NCBI GenBank assembly: GCA_001776545.1
Contig: MFBZ01000022.1
Span: forward strand, 14,065-78,064
Direction of reading: 5' to 3'
Source: Candidatus Curtissbacteria bacterium RIFCSPLOWO2_12_FULL_41_16
Lineage (GTDB): Bacteria; Patescibacteriota; Microgenomatia; Curtissbacterales; GWA2-41-24
DNA length: 64,000 nt
The translations under genes were made by a program, and so were the position numbers. The notes beneath the pieces are model-generated. The model was not told the DNA's origin, ran no database searches, and worked only from the letters and a program-made list of their open reading frames with translations. Of this stretch, positions 4,178 to 59,409 are shown in pieces; positions within the stretch are counted from its first letter, which is position 1, and each line of letters begins with the position of its first letter.

Positions 4178-4232
4178 GAAACAATTGTAATTGTTAGATT
4201 GTTAGATTGCTATATTGTTAAATTGATTGAAA

Positions 4233-5459
4233 TCAATTTTTCTGATTACTAAGAATATAGCCTGCCGACAGCCAAAAGAGCAGTTGGCCTTGTTGGAGAG
4301 TCCAGAGGAAATGGTCAAGGCTGGCAAAGACAAGGATGACGATAAAGATAGCAACTTTGGGTTTGGTGGTAATTTGGCGAGCAATAACTAAAAGAAAACT
4401 CACAAAAAGTAAAAGGCCAATAATGCCGTTTTCGGCCAAAATTAGCAAGAAGACATTGTGGACAGGTTGCAAGAGTCGAATTTCGGCAAGAGAAAATAGA
4501 TTAAGTTTGGAAAGCTCGAGGATAAAATTGCCTGAACCAACTCCAAACAAGGGGTTAACTTTTGTGATATCAAGGGACGCCTGGGAAAGCATAAGCCTTT
4601 CGGCAATCGTGGCAAGTTGAAAATCCGATACTGATTTTAAAGATCCAACCGCAATAATAGCTAAAAAGACTAGTCCGAATAGTAAATTTTTGGCGGATCC
4701 ACGCATAATTAAACCCGCAAGAACAATCGCCAAAATTGCCGATTTGGAAAAAGTCAGTAAAGTCGCGACCACCGGGACCAGCAAGCTGAAGATCTGGACT
4801 CTTGTTATTCTTTTCGAAAGCTTCAGGGAAGAGAGGATAATCGCACTGATTACAAAGAAGGCGGCAGCTACGTTAGGATGAGGAAAGGTGCCGTATGGCC
4901 TTAAAAGCTGGTGGCCGAGAATTTGGGCATGGGCGATAGCGGTCGTTGAGGAATCAAATGTTCTTTCACCCAATATCCAAAGCCCCAGGGTTCTTTGAAA
5001 GACAAATTGCCAGATCACTAAAGCAGATTGCCAGAGGACCGAGAAGGTAATAACGTGACGGATCACCCCATGCAGGTTTTTTTTAGAAAATGTAACCGAC
5101 GCAGCAATACTTGTAAGACTAAATTCAAAAATTTTTAAAGTAAACCAGAGAGCTGGAAAGGGTTGGTAAGAGATCAAAAAGGAAGTAAAAAACAAATAGA
5201 GATTAAAAAGCGCCAGGATCCAAATAATAGTTTTGGCGTCTTTGTAAATTTTCGGAAGACTCCTCCAATTCTCCAAGACAAAAATTGCCAAATAAGCAAA
5301 AATTGCCAGATCAGAAAGATAAACAGTAATTGCCCGGTAATCAATGGGCAGGCCTAAAACAAAAGAGTGGCTTGGCCAGAAGAATTTGTTTAACTGAATC
5401 GGAAGAGTAGCCAAAACCGCAAGGAAGAGGAAATCTGATTTGGACATTGAATAGGTCAT
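4233..5459 (-). CDS. O-antigen ligase / polymerase (Wzy/WaaL-like) family membrane protein
   Basis: 408 aa with about 10-12 TM helices and a large loop, the topology typical of the O-antigen ligase family. Confidence 0.5.
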   Translation of the reverse strand: MTYSMSKSDFLFLAVLATLPIQLNKFFWPSHSFVLGLPIDYRAITVYLSDLAIFAYLAIFVLENWRSLPKIYKDAKTIIWILALFNLYLFFTSFLISYQPFPALWFTLKIFEFSLTSIAASVTFSKKNLHGVIRHVITFSVLWQSALVIWQFVFQRTLGLWILGERTFDSSTTAIAHAQILGHQLLRPYGTFPHPNVAAAFFVISAIILSSLKLSKRITRVQIFSLLVPVVATLLTFSKSAILAIVLAGLIMRGSAKNLLFGLVFLAIIAVGSLKSVSDFQLATIAERLMLSQASLDITKVNPLFGVGSGNFILELSKLNLFSLAEIRLLQPVHNVFLLILAENGIIGLLLFVSFLLVIARQITTKPKVAIFIVILVFASLDHFLWTLQQGQLLFWLSAGYILSNQKN

Positions 5460-6792: not shown

Positions 6793-6930
6793 GTGTCACG
6801 AATTTATGCGAATTAGTTAATCCGAATTTACCCGAATTGAGCCCAGTATTTATCGTTCCATTAACTTTTAGTAACTTTTAGAGCCTCTAATTGGTGATTG
6901 GGAATTGGAAATTTGAAATTGGAAATTATT

Positions 6931-7140
6931 TTAAACTGGGTCATAATAGGGCTTTTTGGAAAACGGGTGACAGGCGATGAGCCTTTTAAAAGTGATCCAT
7001 GAACCGATAATTAATCCATACTTTTTTGTGGCTTGCAGGGCGTATTGAGAGCAGGTCGGGTCGTAGCGACAAGTACGATTTACTGACTGAAAAAGATAAT
7101 GATAAAAAAAATAGAGAAATCTAACAACCTGCGCGGTCAT
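6931..7140 (-). CDS. yidD: Membrane protein insertion efficiency factor YidD
   Basis: 69 aa with the signature YQ(Y)ALQA...G...WIT.KRLIACHPFSK..YDPV. Confidence 0.8.
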   Translation of the reverse strand: MTAQVVRFLYFFYHYLFQSVNRTCRYDPTCSQYALQATKKYGLIIGSWITFKRLIACHPFSKKPYYDPV

Positions 7141-7415
7141 ATTTTAAGATAGTCTTCTAGTTTCTGTTTAACTTGCTCCATTTTGAGATTTGCAATATTT
7201 TTCTTGATGATAACTGTTATTTGGCCATCTTTCAAATTTAGGCTGTCCAGGGCTTGCCTTATGATTCTTTTAATTCTGTTCCTGTCGGTTGCCTTTTTGA
7301 CAGTCTTTTTGGATATAACAACCTTAGGTTTCGGCCAAGATTGATTCGTTTTTGAATCATGCGATTGATTAACAATCAAAATAAGCTCTTGACCTTGTAG
7401 GCGGGTTGGGGACAT
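7137..7415 (-). CDS. rnpA: Ribonuclease P protein component
   Basis: 92 aa basic protein with an RNRIKRIIRQAL motif, located downstream of rpmH. Confidence 0.8.
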   Translation of the reverse strand: MSPTRLQGQELILIVNQSHDSKTNQSWPKPKVVISKKTVKKATDRNRIKRIIRQALDSLNLKDGQITVIIKKNIANLKMEQVKQKLEDYLKI

Positions 7416-7831: not shown

Positions 7832-9190
7832 TTGTTTCATATGGAAGGCCAAAAAATTTGGGCCAGCATTCTAGCAGGCATCAAATCGCAGATTTCATCT
7901 TCAACGTTTAAAACCTGGTTTGCCGGTTCTTTTGTTTTGGACTACAAAAAAAATGATGGCGAGAATCTTTTGATTGTCGGCGTCAAGAATAATTTTCTCA
8001 AAGAACAAGTTGAGACTAGATATCAGCCAATAATTGATAAAACTGTTAAGAAAAATGGGTTTTTGCAAACAAGGGTAATTTTTGTAGTTTCCAAAAATGA
8101 TAGGCAGGAGGTATTGGGTAAAAACGAGCCACTATTTTCGGGCGTGGCACCAACTTATATTGGTATTTCTCGTAAAATTGATGGTCTTAATCCGAATCAC
8201 ACTTTTGAAAACTTTGTTGTCGGGTCTTCCAATAACTTAGCTTTTTTGGCTTTTAACCAGGTGGGGGGCAATTTGGGCTCAGTGTACAATCCACTTTTTG
8301 TTTATGGACCAACGGGTGTCGGTAAAACCCATCTCCTGCAGGCTTGCGGCAATGCTGTCCTTTTGGAAATCGTAGACGCTAAGGTTCTTTATGTCTCGGC
8401 AGAAAAATTTACAAATGATTACATAGAATCGCTCCGCGACAGAACCATGGCGGCTTTTCGCCAGAAATACCGAGGCGTCGACCTTCTCCTGGTTGACGAT
8501 GTCCAGTTTTTAGCCGGCAAAGAAAGTACGCAGGATGAATTTTTTTACACTTTTAATGAGCTCTATCTTTCGGGAAGACAGATTGTTCTGGCGGCGGATC
8601 GTCATCCCAGAGAGCTAGGAAGACTCAAGGAAAGATTAGTCAGCCGGTTTTTGGGTGGGATGGCGGTCGATGTCGCCAGACCCGACCTGGAGCTGCGTAC
8701 GGCAATTCTTAAGGCTAAGTGCAGAGAGAGGAAACTAAATTTAAATGATGAAATAATTGATTATATTGCGCGTCAATGCAGCAATGAAGTGCGAGAATTG
8801 GAGGGAGTTTTGGTGCAGGTTCTTTCTTTAATCCGGATTTCGGGTAAAATTTCTCTTTTGCAAATTAAAACGGCCATTGAAAGAGGCCGGAAAAATGTGG
8901 TTATAAAACCTGCGCCTGGTAAAATTATTGAGGCCGTGTCTCGTCATTTTAAAATTGCCAGCGGTGATATTTGTGGTTTGAGGCGAAAAGCAAGGTTGGT
9001 CCGTGCTAGACAAGTTTTAATGTACCTTTTAAGACAAGAGCTGGGCTTACCGCTTGGGGTTATTGGGGATCTTATTGGGGGTAGAGATCATTCGACTGTT
9101 CTTTACGGCATTGAGAGAGTTTCAAAAGAGATGGCAGCTGACCGGAGCAAGAATGATGAGGTTTTGCGAATTCGTTCTCTTTTCCAATAA
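7832..9190 (+). CDS. dnaA: Chromosomal replication initiator DnaA
   Basis: 452 aa with Walker A GPTGVGKTHL, AAA+ box LLLVDDVQFL and a C-terminal DNA-binding domain (RQVLMYLLRQELGLPLGVIGDLIGGRDHSTVLYGIERV). An alternative start is MEGQ at 7841. Confidence 0.9.
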   Translation: MFHMEGQKIWASILAGIKSQISSSTFKTWFAGSFVLDYKKNDGENLLIVGVKNNFLKEQVETRYQPIIDKTVKKNGFLQTRVIFVVSKNDRQEVLGKNEPLFSGVAPTYIGISRKIDGLNPNHTFENFVVGSSNNLAFLAFNQVGGNLGSVYNPLFVYGPTGVGKTHLLQACGNAVLLEIVDAKVLYVSAEKFTNDYIESLRDRTMAAFRQKYRGVDLLLVDDVQFLAGKESTQDEFFYTFNELYLSGRQIVLAADRHPRELGRLKERLVSRFLGGMAVDVARPDLELRTAILKAKCRERKLNLNDEIIDYIARQCSNEVRELEGVLVQVLSLIRISGKISLLQIKTAIERGRKNVVIKPAPGKIIEAVSRHFKIASGDICGLRRKARLVRARQVLMYLLRQELGLPLGVIGDLIGGRDHSTVLYGIERVSKEMAADRSKNDEVLRIRSLFQ

Positions 9191-10608: not shown

Positions 10609-10674
10609 TTTCTGGTAATGATTAACCGGTAGCTGGTAATTTGTAACCAGATACCGGTTACCAGGTGCACAATC

Positions 10675-10977
10675 GTGTTTACCCCAATTGGAACTTTAAT
10701 CAAAAATTTCCCTCGTCGCTCTAAAACTCCGGAGGCGGTTTTAGCATTGCAAGTTAGACAGGCTGCCAAAGAATCCTTGGGGGAAATTTGTAGAGATTTG
10801 GGAAGCGATGTTTTGGACTCTGCCAAGATCAAATCTTTTAAAAATGGGATATTAGTAATACAGGCCCCGAGTTTGCTTTGCGCAGAGCTTCAGATGCGCT
10901 CTGAGGGGCTGATACGTGAGATTAATCGGGTGTTTGCGAAAAGACTGGTAACTCATTTAAGGTTTAGGGTTGGATAA
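10675..10977 (+). CDS. DUF721/DciA-like small protein (hypothetical)
   Basis: 100 aa located after dnaN. Weak resemblance to DUF721 proteins that are found near dnaN/recF/gyrB in other bacteria. Confidence 0.35.
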   Translation: MFTPIGTLIKNFPRRSKTPEAVLALQVRQAAKESLGEICRDLGSDVLDSAKIKSFKNGILVIQAPSLLCAELQMRSEGLIREINRVFAKRLVTHLRFRVG

Positions 10978-11556: not shown

Positions 11557-14500
11557 TATTCAACTCCTCCAAAAATTTGGGTTTTGGCAAAGTTGTAATG
11601 GACAGGCCTATCATTTTTGAAAGTTGTCCACCCAGGCCCAGGGTTGACCCAAGCGCCACCTGGATAACCGGACCAAGATCTGGGGTTAAAGCTGTGGGTT
11701 TTTGAAACCACATAATCACTAATCATCTCGGCAAAAGACTCTGAGGCAACGCCCCAGGTTATTTCTTGAGGGGGGAAAGGATAGGTAGGCATCAAGCCCT
11801 CCTGGTTGTAAATACCTATAAAGTTGTTGTAGATGCCGGTATTGTAGTTACCAAGCACATGGCCCATCTCATGGATAATGACATATTTGGCAAAACTGGT
11901 TGGTGTCATATTACAGGCAACGGTGATTCTGTTGCCGCCGTTTACTGTTCCGCAGACCCCACTCCCAAGTGAGCCGTCAGAGACGCGAATTAAATAAATA
12001 GTGCCGGCGTTTTGGAGCAGAGAGACAGCCTGTGGTGATTGGTCTAAGTCTTTGCAGATTTCGTCGATGTTGTTATTCTCGGTGGAAGACCAAGGGCCTT
12101 GCCGCTCAATTATTCCGCAAATTGTTGGAGGGTTACCAATGACTACTGTGGCAGTTGTATTGCCGGTGATCGTGGGTTCGCTTTCGGGCGTAGCTGTGAC
12201 TGTGACAGTATTGGCAACGACCGAATCTGAGAAGTCATGTCCGGCTTGAGTGTCGGCAGTAATAGTAAATTGACAGCTCCAAGTTGCATTGGCAGCAAGC
12301 GTCTCAGGGATTGTATCTGCACAAGGCGGTGATATCAAATTACCATTTTTATCTTGAGTTACAGTAAAGTTGCCGTTTTTGGCTTGGACTTTTAATTCAT
12401 CGGTAATTTGCAGACCTGTGAGACCCTTTTCTTTGGCTGTTAGGGTTATAAAGAAAGTAATATCAGCGGGCAATTGGTTATTTTCCAGACGGTTAGGAGT
12501 TGCTGATTTGGTTACTGTAAAAAATGGTGTTTCCCCGGGTGGAGCAATTGCTGTTGGTAAGTCTGCTTCCGGATTAAAAAAGGTGGTGGCGGTGACAATG
12601 CCGATGATGGTGCCGCCAATGGCAACGGCGCTAATGCCGCCGACAACTGGAACTGCGGCAAGGGCCGTTGAGGGAGCAAGACCGGTCAAGCCGATGACAA
12701 AATTGGCAGCACCTGAGAGGAATCCGAGTGCGCCACCGGCCGCTGCGGTAATGCCGCCCCAAACGGTAGAAGCAGCGCCAGTAAAAAATCCGCCGATGGT
12801 ACCGATAATCCCGCTGGTTGTTCCTGTTGCTACACTGGTTGTGCCGGCGAAGAAGTTTTTGATTTGGATCAAGCCGCCGGCTGCCAGCCAGCCAATGCCA
12901 GCGCCAATCGCGGCGCCAATGGGGCCTCCTAAGATAAATCCGATAGCCGCGCCAGTGCCAATTGCTCCGATGGCGCTAAGAACATAATGACCAATAACGT
13001 AGCCAAGTGCGCCTCCGATGAAAGATCCGATATAAGCACCGGCAATGACACCAACGAAGGTTCCCAATGGACCGAAAGCACTGCCTAAGATTCCACCGAC
13101 GACTGCTCCGGTTGTGCCACCGACACCAACACCAATGCCGGCGGTGACGGCAGTTGGCGATCCGGTGAATAAACCCAGGGCAATTGCGCCACCAACTGTT
13201 CCACCAACTATCCCCCCAGTGAACATGCTTAGAGGGATGACTACGGGAGCGGCAAGTAGTCCAAACGGACCGAGGGCGACACAGATGCCAATACCGACTC
13301 CAAGACCGATGGTTGCCCCAATGGTTGCGCCGATTAGAAAACCTGTGAAAGCAGCCTGTCCTAGAGCTAGAAAGAAGAGTCCAAGGCCGCCTAAGACGGC
13401 GCCGGCAATATTTCTGATTTTGTGGCCGATCCCTAAGACTATGCCGGCTGGAGTGAAGCCGATAACACCAGCTGGGGCTATGCCCATGCCAAATGACGGC
13501 GCAAGGCTGGTGACTGAGAATCTAAAGCCGGGGTTTATCTTGCCAAAAAAGGAAAGACTTCCGGGGGCAATGGAGGTAAAAGCCGCGCGGGGGCCAAAAC
13601 AGGGGCTGTTGATAATGGTTTGTGGTCTAAAATAATCAAGTCGATACTCCCAAAAGGATTGGGCGCTGTAGGTTGCTTGAAGTAATGCTAGGCGATCTCT
13701 AAAAATATTGCGAAAGGCGGATGCCCTTTTGGGTTTTTTGAGGGCAAGTTCTTGGGCTTTTTGTAACTTGGCTAATTTGATCCGAGACGTTAGGTAAATT
13801 TTTCTTTCCCGATTGGTTAATGACATTTTCTTTTTAAAGTTTCCGGCCTCTAATGTTGTTTTTTTAAGTTCTCTGTTTAGCCACTCCTGATCATGAGCAA
13901 GAAGTGCCAGTTGGGCATCGGACAAATTTTTATCGGAGGATAGAACTAAGCCAGAACCGGTAGGGAGTCGGAACTTTTGTTCGGGTAAAACTTTTGGTGG
14001 TGCCAGTCTTAAATTGGTTGCTAGGGGAGCGGTTAAATTGCCATAGCCGATTTGTAGGCCTACTCTTTTGACACTCTCATTTTGAGAAATCGCTGTACCT
14101 ATTTTAGCTGTAGCTTTGTTGTGGGCGATTTCTTTGTATTTCTGAAGATCTTCAAATGAAGGAATTGTTGTTGGCGAAATCTTTGGAATCTGGCTTGCGA
14201 ATTCGTCAAGATAAGTAACAAGGTAAGTACCAAGACTTGCTTTGAGAATCTCTTGACTTTGGGGAGTAGCAAGAGGTGCGCTAGTTTCTATGATTTGTTT
14301 AACGTTATCTGAAATAGTGTTTAAAGTTTCTTGGGAAGGTTTTCTAAACGTACTGAGCTCTGTAAGTGATCCTAAAACTGCAGATTTTTCCAGTTGAGGC
14401 TTAAGTGATTCGGCGATTTGTGAGGTAATTGGTGTAACTTTTTGGATAAGTTTTTCTTCGTTGAGTTGAATTTCTGGGGGAAGAGTTTTATCTGGGTTTT

Positions 14501-15176: not shown

Positions 15177-15278
15177 ACTTTAAAGATATCATGAATTGTT
15201 AAATTGTTTTTCATCAATAGAGCAATTTAGCAATATAAGAGAGCTTGGTATCTCGTAAGCTCGATATAGTAATTGAAT

Positions 15279-19666: not shown

Positions 19667-19866
19667 GATTGCAATTGCTAGATTGTTACATTGCTAAATT
19701 GTTGAATTGTTTAAAAATAAGCAGAGCTTTTCTTCGAATAACAATCTAACAATGAAACAATATAACAATATCACCCTACCATATGAAACAAGGTGCGGAA
19801 AGTAGATCAAACAGCCTCAAAATAGGCAGATTTTCACAGATGGAGAGTTAGTGTGATTTGCTGGAA

Positions 19867-24888: not shown

Positions 24889-26409
24889 TTAACCGCCTCC
24901 TTGTTCCAATGGTGGAGGTCTTGTTCCGACACCGCTTTTGAGAGATCTATTTAAGAATGGGACACGCTCTCCATATTTCGCAACCACTCCTTGAGCCATG
25001 CCCCAACTGGCGGCTTGACCGACTGCTCTGATGGGTGCGCCCAGAGGTCTACCAATGACGGCTGCCCCCGCACCGAGGGCGGCAGCTCCGGCACCACCGA
25101 ATTGTGGGCCTTTGGCGCCGATGGCGTTTTTGACAAGATTGGCCGCTTCGGGTGTCATGAAGAGAAATCCGAGAGCTATTATTTTACCAATTGCGCCAGG
25201 ATTAAGTCCACCGACAAGCAATGGGAACTTGAGAGCTTCGGAGGCGACTCCTTGAAGCTCGCCTGCTCCGGTTCCTCCAAATGCCGAAATTCCACCGATT
25301 GCCCCGGCAAATATAATCATTAAGGAAACCGTGGGGAAAACGGCGATATTGGCGGCCATTTGTTTAAACCATTCTTTGGCGCCGGTGTTGCCAGGAAGTG
25401 CCTGGATTAAAAAGAAAAAAGGTGCGACCATTGTCAAAATAATAATCATGACATAGGCCATCAGCAGCATTAAGAAAACCCTAAACATAATAAAAAGAGC
25501 GGCGATGCCGACGATTAAACCGGCTATTCCCCCTACGCCCCATTTAATTAAACCAAGTACAGCGCCGCCAGAGATGACGCTGTCCAATAGGCCCTTGATT
25601 GCTTCAGCTGTTGTAGTGAAAACATCTTTCCAGCCACCGACGATTACACCGAAGATACTTTTGTCAAAAATTACAGATGAAGCTTTAGGGGCAGCAATAA
25701 CACCTGCTTCTGCTAATAATTGAATTATGATGTTTATTACAAGGAACATGAGATCGATCATGAGACCGGCGATGGCATAACTGAAAGTAACTAAGATTAG
25801 AGCCACGACAATTCTGGGAATTGAGTCCTGAACGGTGGCTACGGCTTGCGGTGAAATATGGGCGCGGAACATGATCATGAAGCCGATGATCACAAAGACA
25901 ATAACAAAACCTACGTAGGAGGCATTTCTGAAGACTCTCCAGAGGTTAATTACTGGACTTAAAGCTTTGTATCCTTCTCCTTGGGCATAAACAGGTTGTA
26001 CTGGATTAAACTTTTGGAATTCTTGGGCGAAATATTGGACTCCTGAAGCGGGCGGGTTTCCATATAAACTTGCTACTAAGTTCGATGTTGCAGCTAAGGC
26101 TCCTCTACCTGCGGTGAGTTCATTTGTTTCTGGATGAAGGAGCGAGAATCCTAGGATTTGAGTATTTAAACTGTCAACCGTTCCGGCAATTTGGTTAAAG
26201 TTAAAAATTTTATCATCGAAGATATTTTTATCAATCGCACAGCGGTTAAATTGGTTAATAAGTTCTTGATCTGTTGCGTTTGGGTTGTAAGTGCATTGGG
26301 CGTGGACGGGAGAGATGGTAGCGAGTAGCATGTAGCTGGTAACTAGTAGAAAGGTAACTAGTAACTTGCAACTAGTAACTAGTGACCAGATTTTGGCAGC
26401 TAATTTCAT
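24889..26409 (-). CDS. VirB6/TrbL-like polytopic membrane protein
   Basis: 506 aa with a signal/TM N-terminus, a periplasmic segment, 6 or more TM helices and a Gly-rich C-terminal tail, the organisation typical of VirB6/TrbL. It lies in the same locus as virB4-like. Confidence 0.55.
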   Translation of the reverse strand: MKLAAKIWSLVTSCKLLVTFLLVTSYMLLATISPVHAQCTYNPNATDQELINQFNRCAIDKNIFDDKIFNFNQIAGTVDSLNTQILGFSLLHPETNELTAGRGALAATSNLVASLYGNPPASGVQYFAQEFQKFNPVQPVYAQGEGYKALSPVINLWRVFRNASYVGFVIVFVIIGFMIMFRAHISPQAVATVQDSIPRIVVALILVTFSYAIAGLMIDLMFLVINIIIQLLAEAGVIAAPKASSVIFDKSIFGVIVGGWKDVFTTTAEAIKGLLDSVISGGAVLGLIKWGVGGIAGLIVGIAALFIMFRVFLMLLMAYVMIIILTMVAPFFFLIQALPGNTGAKEWFKQMAANIAVFPTVSLMIIFAGAIGGISAFGGTGAGELQGVASEALKFPLLVGGLNPGAIGKIIALGFLFMTPEAANLVKNAIGAKGPQFGGAGAAALGAGAAVIGRPLGAPIRAVGQAASWGMAQGVVAKYGERVPFLNRSLKSGVGTRPPPLEQGGG

Positions 26410-26510
26410 GCAGACTGAAAGGACTCCTTTTTGGGAAGGCTTAATTTAATAGTAGCACGTGGGGAAATACGCAACAAGTAACACGTAACAGGTGACAGGT
26501 GGCAGGGTGA

Positions 26511-27893: not shown

Positions 27894-28208
27894 AAAAAAA
27901 CCTCCGTGTGCCCGAGTAGGAGGTTAGTTGTGCTTCTTAGGCAACTATCCTGCTCGGGATTCGACTTCGCCATTGCGGTATTCGGACTCCTCACTGCGTT
28001 CGGAGTAAACTATTACTTTGTCTAGTTGCTAAACAATTGTTAACAACATTCGAAGTTAATAATTTATGTCGAACGTATGCGAGACACCGTTGCGGCACAG
28101 TGGGAGAGTTGCACTCCACTTCCCCGCAATGGGAATAAATTACTTAATTTACATTAGCATTTATGGCGAGTGGTAGCAAGAGGAATTTTGTTATAAAGGG
28201 ATTGTCTG

Positions 28209-29981
28209 TTAAGGCTGTTGACCACAGTCAATTTTAACACCGAGAGAATCCTGTAAGGCTTTGGGTTTGAGGGCCAAATCACGGACGATTTCTTTACCGC
28301 AATCGGTAGCGCCAATAAATCTTTTCTTGAGATCCTCATCTCCACTTTCAATTTGTTTGCCAGGTAAGCTTTTGGAAAGAAGATCGGGTAGGCAGTACTT
28401 GACTAAGCGCTCGGCATCACCTTGGGCGCATTCACTAGCAATCTTGCTAGTTTGATTGCAGGCTGCTTGGTTACCATCTTTACATCTTTGCACAAGACTG
28501 GCAAAGGTCGGCGGTAAGAAATAATCGCCGACCGCTTGAGGTGTAAAGAAACTATAAACCCCCGGCCTGCCGGTTTCTTGTAAAGACTGAGTTCCTGTTT
28601 CTGCCTGATCCGAGTAAAGGGTACTATTCCAAATTTCTGCAAGCCAGGGGACGCGAAAGACCGGCCAGATTTTTAGAGGTAAAAAGCAAGTGTACGTACC
28701 GTCGCCGTTATCGTCACAGTGATCAAATATCTTAGCTTTATTTTCTGGATCGATAGTAACTTCGCCTATCCAGGTAATATTAAAGGTACAAACTACGTTG
28801 GGATTATCCTGATCGAGTTTATTCTCGTCAGTTTTATTTTGACAAGTTTCACCAGGTAAAAGTTGATCAGCTGGTAAGGCACAATACTTCTCATTGCCTT
28901 CTTTGGCGGGCTTGGAGATTTTAAAACAGCCTGTCGGAGTAGTATCTGTTTGGGCAAAAGCGGTTTTGATAGGATTGGCCGAATCAAGAGAGATTTTAAT
29001 CACCCGCCGTAAGCTTTTGAGGAGAGCTTCTGGTGTTTGGTCAAGTAGCTTCTTACAGAGCGAGAGAGCTTTGGAAAGAATATTACCCGCATCAGCTTGT
29101 TGAGTGATAGTCCCGTGGTCTCGAAATGATTGGGCGGCATAAGGAACAATCATTTGATTAAGCTGATCAGAGGTGGCAGTGGTTCGCCAAAATTGGGGGA
29201 GGATAAATTCGATTACTCGAGGGAGCGATAAAAGACAAAGTTTGCCTGCCTCGAATTGTCTGATGGTTTCCTTGCCCACAGCTTGTTTAAATTCTAATTT
29301 ACCGACATAGAATTCGCTATAAGCTGTGGGGATTTTTTCCCAGTAGCGGCCCCAAGTGGCCAGCCATTGAGTTCTATCCTCATTGGCCTCGGGTGGGTCA
29401 GGGAGCCCAAATTCGCCAACCAGATCATAAATAGTTTTGGGATCACCCTTACCTTCAATATCTGTGTATTTATTGGTAGATTCGAGAAGTGTGGGTTTAT
29501 TGTAGACATACTCCACATATTTTTTTCTCAAGTCATCAATAAGGATTTTGGCAGAAGTCTTTTGGCCAGGCCCATGGAAAAGATTAAAATTTTGGCTGGA
29601 AAGATTGACAATGTTGGCTAGACGGTGGGCATCATCTTGGAATTTGCCCTCAAGGTAATTGGAATTGGTTGTGGAGAAAAGAGCTTGGAGATTGGAAAAA
29701 TCGACTGTAAAACTAAAAGATTGGGAAACGATGACATCCTCATCGCGTTTACCCTTAACTTGAATTGCTTGATCATCAGTGAATTTGATAGGCGCATCTC
29801 TATTTTCGTCGGTGATGTAATTGTCGGTTAATTTATCGGTTTCAACGGCATTTTCGCATGGTTGAGGATTAGGGGGGCCAGCGGCGCTTGCGCCGCTAGT
29901 GATAAGTGATAAGTGATAAGTGATAAGTAAAAAAAATACTATAAGAGAAATGCGAAAAGTGCTTATGATCATACTTTGCAC
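28209..29981 (-). CDS. Secreted cysteine-rich hypothetical protein
   Basis: 590 aa with an N-terminal signal peptide and about 20 Cys residues. The signal-peptide region is encoded by a (GTGATAA)4 repeat plus a T8 tract. Confidence 0.5.
   Translation of the reverse strand: MQSMIISTFRISLIVFFLLITYHLSLITSGASAAGPPNPQPCENAVETDKLTDNYITDENRDAPIKFTDDQAIQVKGKRDEDVIVSQSFSFTVDFSNLQALFSTTNSNYLEGKFQDDAHRLANIVNLSSQNFNLFHGPGQKTSAKILIDDLRKKYVEYVYNKPTLLESTNKYTDIEGKGDPKTIYDLVGEFGLPDPPEANEDRTQWLATWGRYWEKIPTAYSEFYVGKLEFKQAVGKETIRQFEAGKLCLLSLPRVIEFILPQFWRTTATSDQLNQMIVPYAAQSFRDHGTITQQADAGNILSKALSLCKKLLDQTPEALLKSLRRVIKISLDSANPIKTAFAQTDTTPTGCFKISKPAKEGNEKYCALPADQLLPGETCQNKTDENKLDQDNPNVVCTFNITWIGEVTIDPENKAKIFDHCDDNGDGTYTCFLPLKIWPVFRVPWLAEIWNSTLYSDQAETGTQSLQETGRPGVYSFFTPQAVGDYFLPPTFASLVQRCKDGNQAACNQTSKIASECAQGDAERLVKYCLPDLLSKSLPGKQIESGDEDLKKRFIGATDCGKEIVRDLALKPKALQDSLGVKIDCGQQP
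29882..29925. repeat. (GTGATAA)x4 heptanucleotide tandem repeat followed by an A8/T8 homopolymer, inside the signal-peptide coding region
   Basis: The plus strand reads agtgataagtgataagtgataagtgataagtaaaaaaaa. The minus-strand translation is FFLLITYHLSLITSG. Confidence 0.8.
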
Positions 29982-30029: not shown

Positions 30030-30140
30030 GTATAATTGCTACATTGCTACATTGCTACATTGTTTGGTTAAGTTTCTAAATTAAATAATGATGATGTTTT
30101 TCTAAAACAATTTAACAATGGAACAATTTAACAATTTCTA
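30030..30140. repeat. Intergenic 8-bp-period tandem repeat (ATTGCTAC)x3 plus a CAATTTAACAAT cluster
   Basis: attgctacattgctacattgctacattg, then acaatttaacaatggaacaatttaacaattt. It belongs to the (ATTGYTAN)n family seen at nine or more intergenic sites. Confidence 0.7.
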
Positions 30141-31319: not shown

Positions 31320-31356
31320 ATAACAATTTAGCCATTTAGCAATTTAACAATTTGTA

Positions 31357-31656: not shown

Positions 31657-31829
31657 GGTTTCTTCCTTCGACCGACTAACGACTAAAGCCGTTCAATAAT
31701 TTTTAATTTTCAATTCACATTCAATTCTTAATGACTTAATTTTGAAATTTAGAAAATGAAAATTCATTGAAAATTGCAAATTGAAAATTACTAAAAGCGC
31801 TAGTCTTTAGTTGGTAGTCGTTAAGCATT

Positions 31830-33219: not shown

Positions 33220-33451
33220 TTTCAGTGTAGCATTAGATAGATAAATTGTTAAATTGTTACATTGCTAAATTGCCGAGTTGGCTATTTGAAGATTTCGGTT
33301 TCGAGAGATTTGGCAAAGGCTTACTTTTTCTCTTGGATATTGTTTTTTCAATTTTTCGTAGTTATTGCTCCCATATATGAATGTGTATGAATGTGTGAAT
33401 CATATCAAGAATCTAGTTTAACACAAAATTAGGCCATGGTATTAAATTGTG

Positions 33452-41417: not shown

Positions 41418-42134
41418 GTGATGGTCAATTTGCTCTTTGATTTTCTTTTCCCCAAACGCTGTGTTTCCTGCGGAAAGTTTGGCGCCTACATTTGTAAGGG
41501 TTGTTTTTCAAAAATTGAATATATCGAAAAGCCAGTTTGTTCAGTTTGCCAAAGACAGGCAATAGGCGGCAAGACTCATCCGGGATGTCGGAGCCGGTAT
41601 GGCCTTGATGGTTTGGTGGTGGCTTGTCGGTATCGAGGGCCGGTTAAGCGGGCAATTACCAAAGTTAAGTACAAATGGATCTATGATATTGAGAAAATCT
41701 TTGTGGATTTGACAGCAGACAATCTTTGGCGTTTTGATCTTCCGTCTGATCTGACAATAGTACCAGTACCTCTGCATTCAAAAAGAAAGCGATGGAGGGG
41801 TTTTAACCAAAGCGAGATTTTGGCCAAGTCTTTGGCCAAAAAGTTTGGGGTAGACTTGCGAGATGTTCTCATAAGAACTAGGGAAACCAAGAGTCAAGTT
41901 GGACTCAAAAGAGACGAGAGAAAAGAGAATGTCAAAGGGGCTTTTAGTCTCAACGCTATCCAAACCCGGTTTGGAATAGCTTCACAAACCGGGTTTGTTA
42001 GGAGTGTGGAAGGCAAAAACTTTATGCTTGTCGATGATGTCTATACCAGCGGCGCAACCATGGCGGAATGTTGTCGGGTTCTTAAAAAAGCAGGGGCAAG
42101 GCAAGTTTGGGGACTGACAGTGGCTTTGGGTTAG
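41418..42134 (+). CDS. ComF-family phosphoribosyltransferase (competence protein ComFC-like)
   Basis: 238 aa with two N-terminal CxxC pairs and a C-terminal PRTase motif (LVDDVYTSGATM). Confidence 0.75.
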   Translation: MMVNLLFDFLFPKRCVSCGKFGAYICKGCFSKIEYIEKPVCSVCQRQAIGGKTHPGCRSRYGLDGLVVACRYRGPVKRAITKVKYKWIYDIEKIFVDLTADNLWRFDLPSDLTIVPVPLHSKRKRWRGFNQSEILAKSLAKKFGVDLRDVLIRTRETKSQVGLKRDERKENVKGAFSLNAIQTRFGIASQTGFVRSVEGKNFMLVDDVYTSGATMAECCRVLKKAGARQVWGLTVALG

Positions 42135-42517
42135 GCTTTCAAAACATCAATGTCATATTGCCAAATCTTTTGGTCACTTGTAATTAGGGTTAAACTTTCG
42201 ATCTGAGATTGAGAAATTAACAATCTGTCGAATGGGTCTGCGTGGTAGTGAGGCAATTTTTGTATACCCAAGACGTGCGTCATTTGTATTGGTAATATAA
42301 TAAATCCGGATTGTTTTATTCCTTTTTCAAGAGTTATTGAAGTTTTTAATTTACCTTTCGCTCTTTTTATTACTATTTCCCAGATAGTGGCGGCGGATAA
42401 AATTATTGTGTTTTTAGGATTTTTGAGGATGTTGAATAAGTTTTTATCGAGTCTTTTTTTGTTTTCCATCCACCATATGAAGATATGGGTGTCCAACAAA
42501 AAGCCTTTGCTACTCAC
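42131..42517 (-). CDS. vapC: PIN-domain toxin VapC
   Basis: 128 aa with an LLDTHIFIW N-terminus and the acidic residues of a PIN fold. Its start overlaps the antitoxin stop. Confidence 0.7.
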   Translation of the reverse strand: MSSKGFLLDTHIFIWWMENKKRLDKNLFNILKNPKNTIILSAATIWEIVIKRAKGKLKTSITLEKGIKQSGFIILPIQMTHVLGIQKLPHYHADPFDRLLISQSQIESLTLITSDQKIWQYDIDVLKA

Positions 42518-42743
42518 CGTAAAATAGCTTGTTTATTTCTGGGTCTTCTTCATCAAAATCATCAGAAACCCAAATCTTCCCTTTCCATAAGCCTGGCTTG
42601 CGCGGCTTGAGTTCTTCTTTGTAGGGAGTGAGTTTGACGACGGGTTTGCCGGCTTTGGCAATTATAACCTCTTCGCCTTTTTGTGTCTTTTCTATAAGTT
42701 TTGAAAGATTGGTTTTTGCTTGGTGAATATTAAATATTTGCAT
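42510..42743 (-). CDS. Phd/YefM-family antitoxin
   Basis: Start trimmed to MQIFNIHQAKTNLSKLIE..., the typical Phd/YefM N-terminus. The gene is 8 bp into the VapC ORF. The longer 115-aa ORF would run into the tRNA region. Confidence 0.65.
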   Translation of the reverse strand: MQIFNIHQAKTNLSKLIEKTQKGEEVIIAKAGKPVVKLTPYKEELKPRKPGLWKGKIWVSDDFDEEDPEINKLFYGE

Positions 42744-42831: not shown

Positions 42832-42915
42832 GGAGGGTGGGCCGGACGGCAAGGCACAAGTTTGCTAAACTTGCTGGGCGAAAGTCCAGAGTGGGTTCGA
42901 CTCCCACACCCTCCG
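42832..42915 (+). tRNA. tRNA-Ser (anticodon GCT)
   Basis: Hand-folded cloverleaf: acceptor GGAGGGT/ACCCTCC, anticodon stem CAAGT/ACTTG with loop TTGCTAA, a long variable arm, T-arm GTGGG-TTCGACT-CCCAC and discriminator G. Confidence 0.8.
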
Positions 42916-42923
42916 CTTGATTA

Positions 42924-43010
42924 GGTGGGGTGCGAGAGTGGATTAATCGGATTGTCTTGAAAACAATTGTGGCAGCAATGTCACCGTGGGTTCGAATCCC
43001 ACCCCCACCG
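42924..43010 (+). tRNA. tRNA-Ser (anticodon TGA)
   Basis: Acceptor GGTGGGG/CCCCACC, anticodon stem ATTGT/ACAAT with loop CTTGAAA, an 18-nt variable arm and T-arm GTGGG-TTCGAAT-CCCAC. Confidence 0.8.
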
Positions 43011-43228
43011 CCGAAACCCTTGGGTTGCTCCAAGTCCCATCCACTATGGTCAATTAGCCTATTGGGGCTTGCCAAAAATTCGCAGAAAAGCTTCAGTGTC
43101 CCAGTTATAGCCTGTAATGTTTAAAATCGCCCAAAATGCCCTAAAGGTAATCGCCCACGGTTCTAAGCTTTTGTCGAAAAACAGCCAAAACTAGCAATTT
43201 TTTGTTGAAAAGAGGCTTATTGAAGAAG

Positions 43229-49879: not shown

Positions 49880-50455
49880 ATGCCCAAGTTTCATAAAACA
49901 GATCATCATGAGGATCATCATACGGGGAGAATTCTCTCCAAAGAAGAACTTGACGCAAAGCATGCGGCAGCACTTGAGGCCAAAGCGATTATTTCCTGGA
50001 AATCTCCGGAGAGAATTTTTAAGGCAAGATCCAAAAAGTATTTTACCAAGGTCGCTCTCTATGGGTTGATTTTTGTGCTGGCGGCAATTGCTTTTGGCGA
50101 GTTTTTCCTGGTAGGGGTAATTATTGCGGTGGTTTTTGTGGTTTATGTTTTGGCGACGGTTGCGCCACACGTTATCGAGCATAAGATTACCAATATGGGC
50201 ATTATCTCCGGGGGACGGGCGTTTTTGTGGGAAGAGCTGGACTCTTTTTGGTTTGATAAGCGCGGCGATGACAGGCTTTTGGTGGTTGCGACTAATTTAC
50301 ATTTCCCGACTCGCTTGATTATTCTGTTAACGACTGTTTCCGAGCGGACACTCCTAGATATTTTGGAAAAACATATCCATTTTCATCATGGCCCGGTGCA
50401 CACGCTTTTTGACAAATGGGCCAATTCGCTACAGAAGAGAATTAACCTCGAGTAA
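49880..50455 (+). CDS. Hypothetical membrane protein (191 aa)
   Basis: Two TM helices in the centre. Preceded by copies of the R2 and R3 modules. Confidence 0.35.
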   Translation: MPKFHKTDHHEDHHTGRILSKEELDAKHAAALEAKAIISWKSPERIFKARSKKYFTKVALYGLIFVLAAIAFGEFFLVGVIIAVVFVVYVLATVAPHVIEHKITNMGIISGGRAFLWEELDSFWFDKRGDDRLLVVATNLHFPTRLIILLTTVSERTLLDILEKHIHFHHGPVHTLFDKWANSLQKRINLE

Positions 50456-50617
50456 AAATTCAATTGTTAAATTGTTTCATTGTTGAATTGTTAGACTGTT
50501 TTGAGTATCTAGTTCCCTTGTAGTAAAATTCCACTGGGTGCTTGTAGTTTCCGCCAGAGGCGGATCAGCCCATGGGTTCTGAGATCCTCAGGATCGAATG
50601 ACCTTTGGCTGACATTT

Positions 50618-51099: not shown

Positions 51100-51965
51100 C
51101 TAGGTTTGCGTTTCTTTAAGCCTGTATTGTTCCGGTGACATTTTCAGTCTTGTATGGATTCTTGCCCTGTTGTAGTAGTTGATTGTTAAATGGATTGCCG
51201 CAATGAACTCACCAAGCGTATCGAATCTGTTAAACTCAAGACCTAAATCAGTCTTAAAGTTGTTGTAGAAAGACTCCTGAAAACCATTTTCCCAAGGTGA
51301 TGATTTGGCGCTCATGGATATTTGAATACCCAGTGAATTAAGGAACTTCGTGTACTCTTTTGATGTGTACTCTGATCCTTGATCGGTATGGATAATTCTG
51401 GGCAAGCTGCCCAGCGTCTTTATCGCATCTACAATCGCCTCAATTACCATTTCTTTAGTATGTCTTGCGGCAACAAACCAACCCACAATTTCCCTGGTTA
51501 CCAGATCCATATATGTTGCCAGGTATACTACCTTTGAAAAGTAGATCATGTGGGTAAAATCTCCAACCAAGACTGTACCGGGTATAATCGGGCAGGTACC
51601 TTTGATTAGGTTTTGATATGGCGCTGGAGCTTTTTTCAAATCCCTTCTTTTCGTCCATCTGGCCTTCCTTTTGTATGGCTTTATGTTATACAGCTTCATT
51701 ACTCGACTCGCCTTACCCTTTTCTTGCCAAGGGAAAGGGCAAGAGCTATTCTTCTGTGGCCATAAGCGGGATTGAGAGCCAAAGTTGATAGAATCTGCTC
51801 CCTTAAAAGTTCATCCTGACGGATTCTGGCTTGGCTATTGGTTTTATATGTTGTTGATCTGGATATTTTAAGAAGACGGCAGAGGAAGGTATGACCAAGG
51901 CTTTTGACCTTAGACTGGATTAAAGCGAGGATTTCCCTTCTTTTTTTTTGACTTCTCAAGTTCAA
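51100..51965 (-). pseudogene. IS3-family transposase OrfB, interrupted (two ORF pieces in different frames)
   Basis: Piece 51699..51965 ends in RRVE, followed by TAATG. Piece 51100..51699 continues with the integrase core. Together the two pieces resemble a full IS3 OrfB. Confidence 0.55.
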
Positions 51966-52182
51966 AGGTTAATACTCCAATGATCTGTTTGAGCTGCGAG
52001 TTTTCATTTTTTAGCCTGTTATACTCAAGGAGGCTGATTGTACCCATGGCTTTTCGAGATAGCCAGGTGTAGATGGTTTTCTCGCTGACTCCATACTGGG
52101 CAGCAACTGCTGCTACTTTCTCGCCGCTCTTTACTTTTGTAAGTATTTCGGCCTTAACTTCGGGATTAACCGGTTTAAACAT
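51910..52182 (-). CDS. IS3-family transposase OrfA (HTH)
   Basis: 90 aa with an HTH segment (AAQYGVSEKTIYTWL) and a leucine-zipper-like C-terminus. Confidence 0.7.
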   Translation of the reverse strand: MFKPVNPEVKAEILTKVKSGEKVAAVAAQYGVSEKTIYTWLSRKAMGTISLLEYNRLKNENSQLKQIIGVLTFELEKSKKKKGNPRFNPV

Positions 52183-52253
52183 TTATTTCACCTCCCAATT
52201 GAAGTATATTTTATGAAGAACTACTGTCTATTTTAAGGGGTACCTGTCGTTTG

Positions 52254-59339: not shown

Positions 59340-59409
59340 TAAGAATTTTCAATATTCAAAAATTAAATTTTCAATGAAAATTTCAAATTTCAAATTTCAA
59401 ATTTAAAGA

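Follow-up and report, generated by a model that had tools for sequence, protein, structure and literature searches.

Intergenic arrays of an 8-bp repeat at gene boundaries in Candidatus Curtissbacteria and other CPR genomes, with a possible role as mRNA hairpins

The closest known kinds of element to the repeat family described here are the STRR hairpins of cyanobacteria and the REPINs. STRR hairpins occur between hupS and hupL, where a function in transcript stability or translational coupling has been proposed (PMC2670836). REPINs are doublets of REP sequences, inverted and separated by a short spacer, which form hairpins in single-stranded DNA or mRNA, and REP singlets also occur (PMC3116915). 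In Haemophilus influenzae, the (ATCTTTC)n repeat in the 5'-UTR of hmw1A and hmw2A contributes to a hairpin that is cut by RNase III and thereby sets expression (PMC12721329). The family considered here consists of arrays of the unit ATTGYTAN and was noticed in a 64-kb stretch of DNA (hereafter the window) from Candidatus Curtissbacteria (Microgenomates, CPR), located near dnaA. A further point of comparison is provided by the operators of ribbon-helix-helix proteins (MetJ, omega, and ParG), in which 2-10 contiguous units, direct or inverted, recur with a 7-8-bp period.

Like STRR, the family comprises short units in few tandem copies at many dispersed non-coding sites, with hairpins placed between co-transcribed genes (here rplN, rplX, and rplE in locus L153). 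It differs in that the unit is 8 bp rather than 7 bp, in that the hosts are CPR bacteria (Curtissbacteria, Shapirobacteria, and Falkowbacteria) rather than filamentous heterocyst-forming cyanobacteria, and in that a single unit, in 3-5 copies and with a measurable polarity and wobble bias, is common to distant lineages. Extragenic inverted doublets with a short spacer and a hairpin, the occurrence of singlets, and dispersal through the genome are shared with REP and REPIN elements; however, each arm here is a direct tandem array, whereas each REP is a 20-40-nt imperfect palindrome, neither the 64 kb nor the annotated flanks yielded a RAYT transposase, and doublets are not better conserved than singlets. 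REPs are species-specific, whereas the present unit spans phylum-level lineages. The resemblance to hmw1A/hmw2A lies in a short tandem repeat in a leader (transcription being presumed here) that makes up one arm of a long hairpin, but the Haemophilus repeat is a single-locus, phase-variable tract of at least 10 identical units whose partner arm is a G-rich non-repeat, whereas the present family has many loci, 3-5 imperfect, strain-stable units, and two arms built from the same unit. Ribbon-helix-helix operators resemble the arrays in period, contiguity, and mixture of orientations; they are, however, double-stranded DNA sites at the promoters or centromeres of a defined gene set, whereas the arrays lie between cistrons or at the ends of unrelated housekeeping genes and carry a single-strand-specific wobble bias.

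A first-pass annotation of the window had reported 8-nt-period (ATTGYTAN)n arrays, and these are real: nine arrays of at least three units were found compared with 0.02 in shuffles, and the two-unit pattern ATTGYTANATTGYTA (at most one mismatch) matched 30 times in the window against 0.12 expected from dinucleotide shuffles, in which the maximum was 1. Tandem Repeats Finder returned period-8 arrays at 4190-4225, 19673-19711, 19738-19771, 30035-30062, and 30106-30137, and further ones at 31324-31353, 33242-33272, 50462-50493, and 61196-61237. The family thus stands far above the shuffled background, and it is not confined to the window, occurring also just beyond its left edge and in other genomes. 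An extra module lies about 3.3 kb past the left edge of the window in the host genome (L286 14898-14960); the spread of arrays within that genome is described here for the 64-kb window and the L286 flank. Every array in the window falls between called genes, in agreement with the intergenic placement reported earlier. The annotation had listed single arrays at 15.2k, 19.7k, 30.0k, and 61.2k, where inverted pairs of arrays are found instead; its site at 15190-15230 is real but small (two forward and two inverted units), and that at 28020-28050 is no array but a single overlapping forward/inverted unit. The elements of the window are as follows.

4190-4220, plus strand: 4-unit array, ATTGTTAG ATTGTTAG ATTGCTAT ATTGTTA; R type (NTARCAAT) in the sense of the flanking minus-strand genes
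15195-15234, both strands: small module, 2 units on the plus strand (15195-15209) and 2 units on the minus strand (15220-15234)
19674-19712, plus strand: 5-unit arm, R type in minus-strand sense, ending 7 nt before a PrgI-like ATG (19666)
19713-19738, no strand assigned: spacer with small tip hairpin AAGC-AGA-GCTT
19739-19769, minus strand: 4-unit arm, F type in minus-strand sense, 3 nt after a conserved TGnTAGGGT -10-like box
30035-30065, plus strand: 4-unit arm, ATTGCTAC three times followed by ATTGTTT; R type in minus-strand sense
30105-30135, minus strand: 4-unit arm, F type in minus-strand sense, 7 nt after the stop of a pilin gene (30143)
31321-31351, minus strand: single 4-unit array, F type in minus-strand sense
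33245-33267, plus strand: single 3-unit array, R type in minus-strand sense, 31 nt before the ATG of a 342-aa gene (33213)
50463-50493, plus strand: single 4-unit array, F type, beginning 7 nt beyond the stop codon of plus-strand gene 49880-50455
61197-61235, plus strand: 5-unit arm, F type, beginning on the last base of a carbamoyltransferase stop codon (61195-61197)
61275-61289, minus strand: 2-unit arm, R type in plus-strand sense, ending 7 nt before the ATG of a 59-aa DUF5989 gene (61297)

The array at 4190-4220 is 12 nt from each of its neighbors, the stop of a Wzy-like gene (4233) preceding it and the GTG of a flippase gene (4177) following it, and a mini-hairpin, AAATTGAT/ATCAATTT, at 4221-4240 gives one forward-like unit beside it. 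The small module at 15195-15234, between a VirB4-like stop (15279) and the start of a 1207-aa gene (15176), has a weak predicted hairpin (z = +0.8). In sense RNA, 19739-19769 folds with 19674-19712 at -31.8 kcal/mol (z = -4.7); a core resembling the intervening spacer, AATAAGCrrAGCTTTTCTTyGAA, is found again at 61236-61274. At 30.0k the R-type arm is 62 nt before the ATG of a 587-aa gene (29972), and pairing of 30105-30135 with 30035-30065 in sense RNA (-24.1 kcal/mol, z = -3.5) includes three U·G positions. The single array at 31321-31351 fills the 46 nt that separate a pilin stop (31357) from a 131-aa gene starting at 31310, and that at 50463-50493 is 124 nt upstream of a tRNA-Arg (50618). 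The hairpin of 61197-61235 with 61275-61289 is weak (-17.6 kcal/mol, z = -1.4). An Rfam scan of the window at gathering thresholds returned only tmRNA and six tRNAs; a full-text literature search for the array sequence found no paper, and nothing pertinent came up in the literature on leaderless transcripts, Shine-Dalgarno sequences, tandem repeats, or REP elements of CPR/Patescibacteria.

The ATTGYTAN unit, usually in 3-5 copies, recurs in other CPR genomes (Shapirobacteria and Falkowbacteria), and no (ATTGYTAN)n array was found in 1.24 Mb of control genomes. A scan of a viral collection gave 67 matches, mostly on AT-rich contigs (GC 22-35%) and many in giant-virus MAGs; these are single arrays, sometimes long (up to 12 units), and are counted as a background class rather than as members of the family. 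Conservation of the unit (A99 T97 T97 G97 Y T99 A91 N, in percent) describes a 6-bp core with two looser positions, the core ATTGYT being 97-99% conserved across Curtissbacteria, Shapirobacteria, and Falkowbacteria. Copy number is narrow, at 3-5 units per array with a mode of 4 across genomes, and the units inside one window array differ at Y and N. Among 17 contigs of the same species, from many samples, the arrays are identical except in L005, which at one site has one unit fewer and a 21-bp duplication of the spacer. Among close relatives the distribution is patchy: L285 has five arrays in 21 kb, whereas L282, L283, and L284, whose VirB4 proteins are 83-90% identical to that of the window, have none. 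Upstream of PrgI, the window species and L285 carry the module between the conserved -10-like box and the PrgI ATG, L283 lacks it, and L282 and L284 have different sequence in its place; counted by species, two have the module, a third has 13 nt, and two others have unrelated inserts. In L099, two near-identical composite copies of about 240 bp each start with an array.

Gene neighborhoods elsewhere are dominated by core functions. In L153, modules fill both gaps of rplN-rplX-rplE, where there is no Shine-Dalgarno sequence; others are found ahead of fusA, rpsM, glyA, and dnaB, and one lies between convergent rplY and tRNA synthetase genes. A Shine-Dalgarno-like core precedes only 15 of the 64 window genes. 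Canonical AAGGAGG sites do exist in the window, and the anti-Shine-Dalgarno sequence is therefore probably standard; none of the retrieved loci includes a 16S rRNA gene, with whose 3' end the arrays might have been compared for pairing.

The arrays have a polarity with respect to stop and start codons. The earlier observation that they lie close to minus-strand starts is true but captures only half of it: arrays in forward orientation come after stop codons, and those in inverted orientation come before start codons. The metagenome loci were retrieved through an exact 3-unit match and include some unrelated AT-rich microsatellites, and genes in them were called only roughly, as the longest ORFs of 80 aa or more. 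With this caveat, 19 of 122 arrays read as NTARCAAT are followed within 0-14 nt by the ATG of a long ORF, compared with 2 of 119 when read as ATTGYTAN (p = 1e-4), and in the former the distance from array to ATG peaks at 7-8 nt. Inverted pairs are convergent rather than divergent (24 vs 4), with gaps of -2 to 70 nt, and of the 68 arrays located between co-directional genes, 38 are oriented opposite to the genes and 30 along them. Roughly two thirds of arrays have no recognizable partner and no predicted structure. Where no partner array of two or more units is nearby, forward arrays lie closer to the stop than to the start by 13:6, and inverted arrays closer to the start by 15:7 (p = 0.03). 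All three arrays located upstream of tRNA genes have the forward orientation, and one of these is 1 nt away from its tRNA.

Paired arrays are predicted to fold into long AU-rich hairpins in which 7-bp helices are interrupted by a mismatch at every 8th base, whereas the single arrays of the window have fold z-scores near 0 and no predicted structure. The arms of a pair also differ in composition. In paired modules between co-directional genes, C occupies the Y position in 7 of 41 units of the forward arm and 24 of 49 of the inverted arm (Fisher p = 0.0018), a bias that single arrays lack (0.25 vs 0.30, p = 0.6). Read as sense RNA, the in-register oppositions of paired modules are U-A (15), U·G (17), C-G (4), and C×A (5), such that 36 of 41 are pairable on the sense strand and 24 of 41 on the antisense strand; the excess of U·G over C×A is significant (binomial p = 0.017). 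That U·G wobbles outnumber C×A in pairs, and that the bias is absent from single arrays, points to a hairpin at the RNA level. The N positions show no complementarity, and the sense fold is more stable than the antisense fold in only 9 of 13 modules. The U·G bias could instead track the direction of replication, through G·T in single-stranded DNA, rather than transcription; this is conceivable since genes tend to be co-oriented with replication.

We tentatively favor, at somewhat less than even likelihood, the view that the arrays are arms of a dispersed family of intergenic foldback repeats acting as post-transcriptional punctuation in mRNA. A full module would consist of a forward (ATTGYTAN)3-5 beginning 0-13 nt after the upstream stop codon, a short spacer, often with a small G+C-richer tip hairpin, and an inverted (NTARCAAT)3-5 ending about 7-8 nt before the next start or overlapping it. 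Assuming that it is transcribed, the module would be part of the mRNA, as a 5' leader, an intercistronic segment, or a 3' end, and would fold there into a long, AU-rich hairpin whose 7-bp helices are separated by a 1x1 mismatch every 8 positions. An RNA element is the only reading that suits the modules lying in rplN-rplX-rplE, before fusA, rpsM, glyA, and dnaB, between convergent genes, and between the -10-like box and the PrgI ATG. While the anatomy, polarity, hairpin potential, and sense-strand wobble bias are direct observations, transcription through the module and every functional consequence are what we infer from them. By analogy with STRR and REP/REPIN elements, the hairpin may protect segments of mRNA or direct their processing. 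The closed hairpin may also lock the unstructured A/C/U-rich NUARCAAU stretch that precedes the start codon in this Shine-Dalgarno-poor genome, and ribosomes finishing the upstream gene would open the forward arm and free the downstream start. The exact function would be either mRNA stabilization or processing, or translational coupling of genes that have no Shine-Dalgarno sequence. The hairpin cannot be the whole story, given that about two thirds of arrays are partnerless and have no predicted structure, and a hairpin role alone does not explain the conservation of ATTGYT across lineages or the non-complementary N positions.

A more specialized version of the coupling idea, which we consider doubtful, is that of a device specific to Shine-Dalgarno-poor CPR, with an unstructured (NUARCAAU)n pad and a cis-acting (AUUGYUAN)n lock 0-13 nt after the upstream stop. 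The pad, 7-8 nt before the AUG, would then serve as a Shine-Dalgarno-independent landing site for ribosomes, or a conserved RNA-binding factor might read its ARCAAU core at the 8-nt period; only ribosomes terminating on the upstream gene would melt the lock, so that rplX and rplE would be translated in step.

Other explanations place the function of the arrays, if any, in DNA. Mobility had been raised by the first-pass annotation and is still a live reading, albeit a rather unlikely one: the family would be selfish, non-autonomous DNA of foldback, REPIN, or MITE type, with arrays as terminal transposase binding sites, a hairpin that matters in single-stranded DNA, stop and start neighborhoods that are simply places where insertion is tolerated, and incidental effects on RNA. 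The patchy occurrence among close relatives (L285 vs L282, L283, and L284), the presence or absence of the PrgI module at an orthologous site, the sharing of the unit by distant CPR lineages, the duplicated composite of L099, the constant arm length of 3-5 units, and the REPIN-like layout of inverted doublets (PMC3116915) are all in keeping with this. However, no target-site duplication is visible flanking the modules at 19.7k, 30.0k, and 61.2k or in L153, and no Y1 (RAYT) transposase (PF01797) was present among the scanned window proteins or in the precomputed flank annotations. The two arms act like terminal inverted repeats, and some transposon classes make no target-site duplication. Window copies at separate loci differ at Y, N, and spacers and so show no evidence of recent bursts, decayed mobile elements would not be expected to have the stop/start polarity found for single arrays, and pairing brings no gain in conservation (64% exact units in paired arrays vs 76% in single ones, a comparison open to ascertainment bias, since an exact 3-unit match was used to retrieve the loci). 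The idea of a binding site for a nucleoid or regulatory protein, also suggested at first pass, survives as a candidate that we judge improbable, in the form of operator-like double-stranded sites on which a small protein would bind with one unit per dimer and polymerize along 3-5 units. Such polymerizing binding is known for MetJ on 8-bp metboxes, the omega repressor on 7-bp heptads, and ParG on 8-bp-spaced boxes, and a conserved 6-bp core with two looser positions, the 8-bp period, 3-5 units (mode 4) in direct and inverted orders, as in ribbon-helix-helix layouts, and conservation of the core across lineages, which implies a sequence-specific partner, all suit it. The neighboring genes nevertheless form no regulon (they encode ribosomal proteins, EF-G, SHMT, DnaB, pilins, and transporters), some sites are internal to a ribosomal-protein operon or flanked by convergent genes, a candidate binding protein was not identified, and the strand-specific U·G bias, limited to paired arrays, is left unexplained and is unexpected for a double-stranded DNA site.

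Promoter readings, like the operator and phase-variation ones, fit less well than an RNA hairpin. The earlier proposal of a promoter or UP-like element is not supported, with about half of the arrays pointing away from the adjacent gene, pairs convergent by 24 to 4, arrays also located between rplN, rplX, and rplE and between convergent gene ends, and the PrgI module downstream of a conserved -10-like box. More specifically, forward arrays might be tandem overlapping extended -10 elements or sigma-binding sites: the junction TGYTANATT fits TGnTAnnnT, every unit junction has the key positions, the variable Y and N fall on non-conserved promoter positions, several promoter-like boxes of the host genome carry TGn, and arrays ahead of tRNA genes are forward in all three cases. 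We nevertheless consider this very unlikely. Against it stand the 38 arrays directed against co-directional genes compared with 30 along them, the convergent pairs (24:4), which are the opposite of divergent promoters, the modules within rplN-rplX-rplE and downstream of the PrgI -10-like box, and the would-be A-11, which is the least conserved fixed position (91%); moreover, inverted arrays lie 7-8 nt from starts, and a promoter firing away from the gene there would make no sense. Simple-sequence contingency loci, in which slipped-strand changes in unit number switch surface genes such as T4SS pilins, would account for short tandem repeats beside pilin and T4SS genes and for the missing unit and 21-bp spacer duplication of L005, and have a 7-bp precedent upstream of hmw1A. 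Yet Y/N differences among units suppress slippage, the 17 same-species contigs agree at all arrays bar one site in L005, copy number is fixed at 3-5 across genomes, and neighbors elsewhere are mostly housekeeping genes; we regard this explanation as extremely improbable.

Several further candidates were set aside. A self-contained promoter (TTGYTA as -35 and TANATT as -10) would, as reasoned from the sequence, have a spacing of 14 or 22 nt instead of 16-18, and an inverted unit acting as a leaderless -10 would place G at the required A-11 in the half of start-proximal units that read AGCAAT. A three-frame stop/start pad is not the main selected feature, the T of TAR (complement of A7) being the least conserved fixed position. 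Polar sites of Chi or KOPS type do not agree with the window, which has no strand bias relative to replication (seven plus vs five minus arrays). Known DNA uptake sequences are single 9-12-mers, unlike these tandem arrays. Nor are the modules intrinsic (Rho-independent) terminators: their stems are AU-rich with periodic mismatches, not G+C-rich, the 3' arm stops 7-8 nt short of the next start codon, modules occur inside a ribosomal-protein operon, and T runs come after some copies only.

CPR (Patescibacteria) account for a large share of bacterial diversity, and gene expression in these organisms is almost unstudied. The element described here is a measurable cis-signal exactly at gene boundaries that is common to distant CPR lineages and precedes core genes without Shine-Dalgarno sequences, among them fusA, rplE, rplX, rpsM, and glyA. 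If it acts in mRNA, it would offer a handle on translation and transcript stabilization in operons devoid of Shine-Dalgarno sequences; if it is instead mobile, it would represent, as far as literature searches show, the first foldback/REPIN-like family described in CPR. Either way, the family marks operon structure and trips gene callers and assemblers in CPR genomes.

Period-8 arrays were located by Tandem Repeats Finder at nine places in the window, all of them intergenic relative to the called genes. The two-unit pattern ATTGYTANATTGYTA, allowing at most one mismatch, gave 30 matches against 0.12 expected from dinucleotide-preserving shuffles, and a register-aware scan of the window recovered nine arrays of at least three units compared with 0.02 in shuffles, bearing out the 8-bp arrays reported in the first-pass annotation. 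One site listed there, 28020-28050, carries no array; at another, 15190-15230, the repeat is present as a small 2+2 module. At four sites, named by position as 15.2k, 19.7k, 30.0k and 61.2k, a plus-strand array is followed by a minus-strand array, an order previously overlooked, and these arrays thus form inverted pairs. Here F denotes an ATTGYTAN array and R an NTARCAAT array, both read in the sense of the flanking gene (F4 having four units), and an F array, spacer and R array together constitute a module. Nor are the arrays confined to the window: in the same genome, a module of F4, 1 nt and R4 lies approximately 3.3 kb past its left edge, where rplY and a tRNA synthetase gene converge on it, and other genomes also carry arrays.

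For statistics on anatomy, the window arrays were pooled with those of other genomes. Base conservation in inner units is A99 T97 T97 G97 Y(T70/C30) T99 A91 N(A38 T27 C25 G11), and copy number is narrow, with three units in 41 arrays, four in 63 and five in 13. Inverted pairs are convergent (plus then minus) in 24 cases versus divergent in four, separated by gaps of -2 to 70 nt, and the longer spacers frequently contain a small G+C-richer tip hairpin:

19.7k and 61.2k modules, window: AAGC-NNN-GCTT
L153, comparison locus: GACG..CGTC
L137, comparison locus: CCTGCCTG..CAGGCAGG

Sense RNA of the 19.7k and 30.0k modules is predicted to fold at -31.8 kcal/mol (z = -4.7) and -24.1 kcal/mol (z = -3.5), respectively, as 7-bp helices with single mismatches between them. 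Predicted folding is weak for the 61.2k and 15.2k modules, and RNA folding predicted no structure for single arrays.

Read in gene sense, F arrays fall right after the upstream stop codon and R arrays right before the downstream start codon. A long ORF opens with an ATG 0-14 nt past the array in 19/122 cases when arrays are read as R, versus 2/119 when they are read as F (Fisher p = 1e-4), and the R array-to-ATG distance peaks at 7-8 nt. In pairs, this polarity is a trivial consequence of convergent order; among unpaired arrays, with no partner of at least two units nearby, F was nearer the stop by 13:6 and R nearer the start by 15:7 (p = 0.03). The ORFs that follow R arrays are full-length and belong to known genes, indicating that the predicted starts are real, and their assortment (fusA, glyA, dnaB, rplE, rpsM, an Rrf2 regulator, a T4SS pilin and others) points to no regulon among the neighbours. 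At L153, both gaps of rplN-rplX-rplE are filled by modules that have no Shine-Dalgarno sequence; in the first gap the stop is followed by 2 nt, F3, a tip and R4, the last unit of which overlaps the rplX ATG. Where an array lies upstream of a tRNA gene, its orientation is F (3/3 cases). At one comparison locus (L111, 977-1097) the F array ends 1 nt short of the first tRNA-Ser base, such that either the promoter overlaps the array or the tRNA is cut from a longer array-containing transcript.

The two arms also differ at the variable Y position. In paired modules between co-directional genes, C occupies the Y position in 7/41 F-arm units and 24/49 R-arm units (p = 0.0018), while single arrays show no F/R difference (0.25 vs 0.30). 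In-register oppositions in sense RNA of paired modules comprise U-A (15), U·G (17), C-G (4) and C×A (5); because the U·G and C×A classes trade places in antisense RNA, 36/41 Y positions are pairable in sense versus 24/41 in antisense (U·G versus C×A, p = 0.017). Such a sense U·G bias is the signature of a hairpin acting on the sense single strand. It could in principle instead track replication direction, through G·T in single-stranded DNA, which is inseparable here from gene direction. The N positions are not complementary (n = 29: 10 Watson-Crick, 8 wobbles even between strands, 11 mismatches), and periodic 1x1 loops are thus a real feature.

The window DNA is also found in GCA_001776395.1 and in Rifle aquifer assemblies, and its VirB4-like protein is identical to one from 'Candidatus Curtissbacteria bacterium RIFCSPHIGHO2_01_FULL_41'. 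Its genes include rpmH, rnpA, yidC, dnaA, dnaN, dnaG-rpoD, tmRNA and six tRNAs, together with a T4SS-like cluster (10957-33213) encoding PrgI-like, TraC-like and VirB4-like proteins, a large protein of 1100-1200 aa and several PF18895 pilins. The cluster adjoins dnaN-dnaA-rnpA-yidC in the window species and all four relatives (L282-L285), among which VirB4 identity is 83-90%, and has the appearance of conserved chromosomal core, not of a mobile island. Plus-strand GC skew stays positive over the whole window (1-64000), on both sides of dnaA (7841-9190), with no sign change at the origin expected there. An IS3-family element (rve and HTH_Tnp_1) adjoins a toxin-antitoxin run (BrnT/CopG, PIN/MazE, PIN/PhdYeFM) and a large serine recombinase adjoins two tRNA-Ser genes (42832-43012); these regions, 51100-53889 and 42131-42743, may represent an integrated element. 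A Shine-Dalgarno-like core precedes only 15/64 window genes, and in some genes of the window the ATG comes 6-7 nt after canonical -35/-10 boxes, as at this site:

48803: promoter-like box, TTGACT-17-TATAAT-6-ATG

Together these suggest that many mRNAs of this genome probably have little or no leader.

Scanning public metagenome contigs with three exact units returned at least 119 stretches, from which 80 loci were taken; among the matches listed, 0/80 had a BLAST match to the window and 33/80 carried at least two separate arrays. Exact protein look-ups assigned individual loci to Candidatus Shapirobacteria (L160), Candidatus Falkowbacteria (L131) and, for a locus with one array only, a Bacteroidales MAG (L154). 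In 80 other species, the sequence surrounding rpoD (1.24 Mb in total) contained no array of three or more units. A viral collection gave 67 matches, mostly single arrays, some long (up to 12 units), on contigs that are largely AT-rich (GC 22-35%) and in many cases belong to giant-virus MAGs; these were treated as unrelated background, contaminating the metagenome set to some degree. One 10.8-kb contig classed as viral (L270, IMGVR_UViG_3300002307_002689; 4-98 and 10658-10730) carries at one end a perfect array of 12 units, (TAAATTGC)n, and near the other two inverted arrays with four copies each of the same unit; it resembles a linear element whose terminal inverted repeats are made of the array unit.

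The four relatives, whose VirB4 proteins share 83-90% identity with that of the window, permit a closer comparison: five arrays occur in 21 kb of L285, but none in L282, L283 or L284. An extended -10-like box ending TG(G/T)TA(G/T)GGT is common to the five species upstream of PrgI and lies 13 nt from the ATG in L283. In the window species and L285, an F-spacer-R module is inserted between box and ATG; L282 and L284 have other inserts of similar length, with their own repeats, in its place. This module is thus a predicted 5' leader hairpin that is not obligatory to PrgI. The box terminates a block of ~65 bp (GTGAAAAT...CTTGTTTCATATGGTAGGGT; window 19770-19866) that is conserved in all five species and is probably the promoter and control region of the T4SS operon.

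The 8-bp family is the commonest of several tandem-repeat families in the window genome. Repeats of 7-bp period lie at further gene boundaries (6889-6927, 59378-59404, 26354-26383, 26469-26506, 31742-31789): (TTYCCAA)5 begins 3 nt after the yidD stop in minus-strand reading, (AAATTTC)3.9 ends 6 nt upstream of a carbamoyltransferase ATG, and GTAACTA, ACGTAAC and ACAGGTG repeats precede the 24889-26409 gene. Two more lie within coding sequence (29898-29928 and 63952-63983), where slippage would change the reading frame: (AGTGATA)4.4 in the signal-peptide region of a 587-aa protein, encoding ..LLITYHLSLIT.. and invariant in length in two covering strain contigs, and (AGGATGA)4.6 in a YfhO-like gene. 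The palindrome (T/A)CCGCC-N4-GGCGG(A/T), often nested in GTCATTC...GAATGAC arms, has many copies in several array-bearing contigs (L097, L099, L100, L139, L169, L283), lies directly 3' of forward arrays in L099, L139 and L169, and occurs once in the window (50540-50600), between the 50.4k array and tRNA-Arg. In L285, from a related Microgenomates genome, long foldbacks with arms of roughly (ATCAGTAnn)n then (TACCGAnnn)n follow the stops of two T4SS-cluster genes (7126-7300 and 11855-12100), indicating that tandem-repeat-armed hairpins are general in these genomes and not bound to one unit.

Among known systems, the family comes closest to the cyanobacterial STRRs, whose 7-bp units repeat in tandem and give hairpins in the hupS-hupL interval and at other sites; they are of unknown function, with stability or translational coupling proposed (PMC2670836). 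REPINs have a similar layout, in which inverted doublets outside genes fold as hairpins (PMC3116915), and the Haemophilus hmw (ATCTTTC)n leader provides a case of a hairpin arm made of tandem repeats that works via RNase III (PMC12721329). The present family differs in having an 8-bp unit common to distant lineages, a CPR host, and both arms built from one unit in opposite orientations; a literature search of incomplete coverage found no published description of it.

The suggestion in the first-pass annotation that the arrays are promoter elements agrees with the unit junctions, all TGYTANATT and fitting an extended -10, and with the use of TGn boxes in the window genome. However, 38/68 arrays are oriented against genes, paired arrays face each other, R arrays run up to start codons, conservation among the fixed bases is lowest at the would-be A-11, and modules lie inside a ribosomal-protein operon, so that several results oppose it. 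An operator of MetJ, omega or ParG type fits in part: the 8-bp period, three to five copies and core-plus-spacer conservation match, and a bound protein would account for a core kept across lineages, but the gene contexts do not fit, and nor does the wobble bias. The earlier proposal of mobile DNA, taken here as a selfish foldback or REPIN-like element, also fits in part, given the patchy distribution, the variation among species at the PrgI locus and the two copies in L099 of a composite repeat of 240 bp; no target duplication was seen, nor any RAYT transposase in the window or flank sequence examined, doublets are not better conserved, and single-array polarity is left without a reason. Phase variation by change in unit number is unlikely, as units are imperfect and a lone strain contig differs, at one site only: L005 (13680-13760, window 61197-61275) has one unit fewer and a 21-bp spacer-hairpin tandem duplication (AATAAGCrAAGCTTTTCTTTG), net +13 bp, the only difference at array sites compared among same-species contigs.

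Only anatomy, polarity, folding potential and sense-strand bias are observed; that the module is transcribed, and every functional effect, is inferred. That it is a transcribed foldback element working in mRNA is possible, if not quite probable. A hairpin alone leaves the conserved core and many single arrays unexplained, and the picture probably still lacks a partner with sequence specificity, be it a protein or a mobilising enzyme. At cistron boundaries, in leaders and at 3' ends, the module hairpin would serve to stabilise segments of the transcript or to process them. The R stretch is G-poor, has no predicted structure when free, and ends at Shine-Dalgarno distance from starts that have no Shine-Dalgarno sequence, and the F arm begins inside the area that a ribosome covers while at the upstream stop codon, a spacing that suggests a role for the module in translational coupling.
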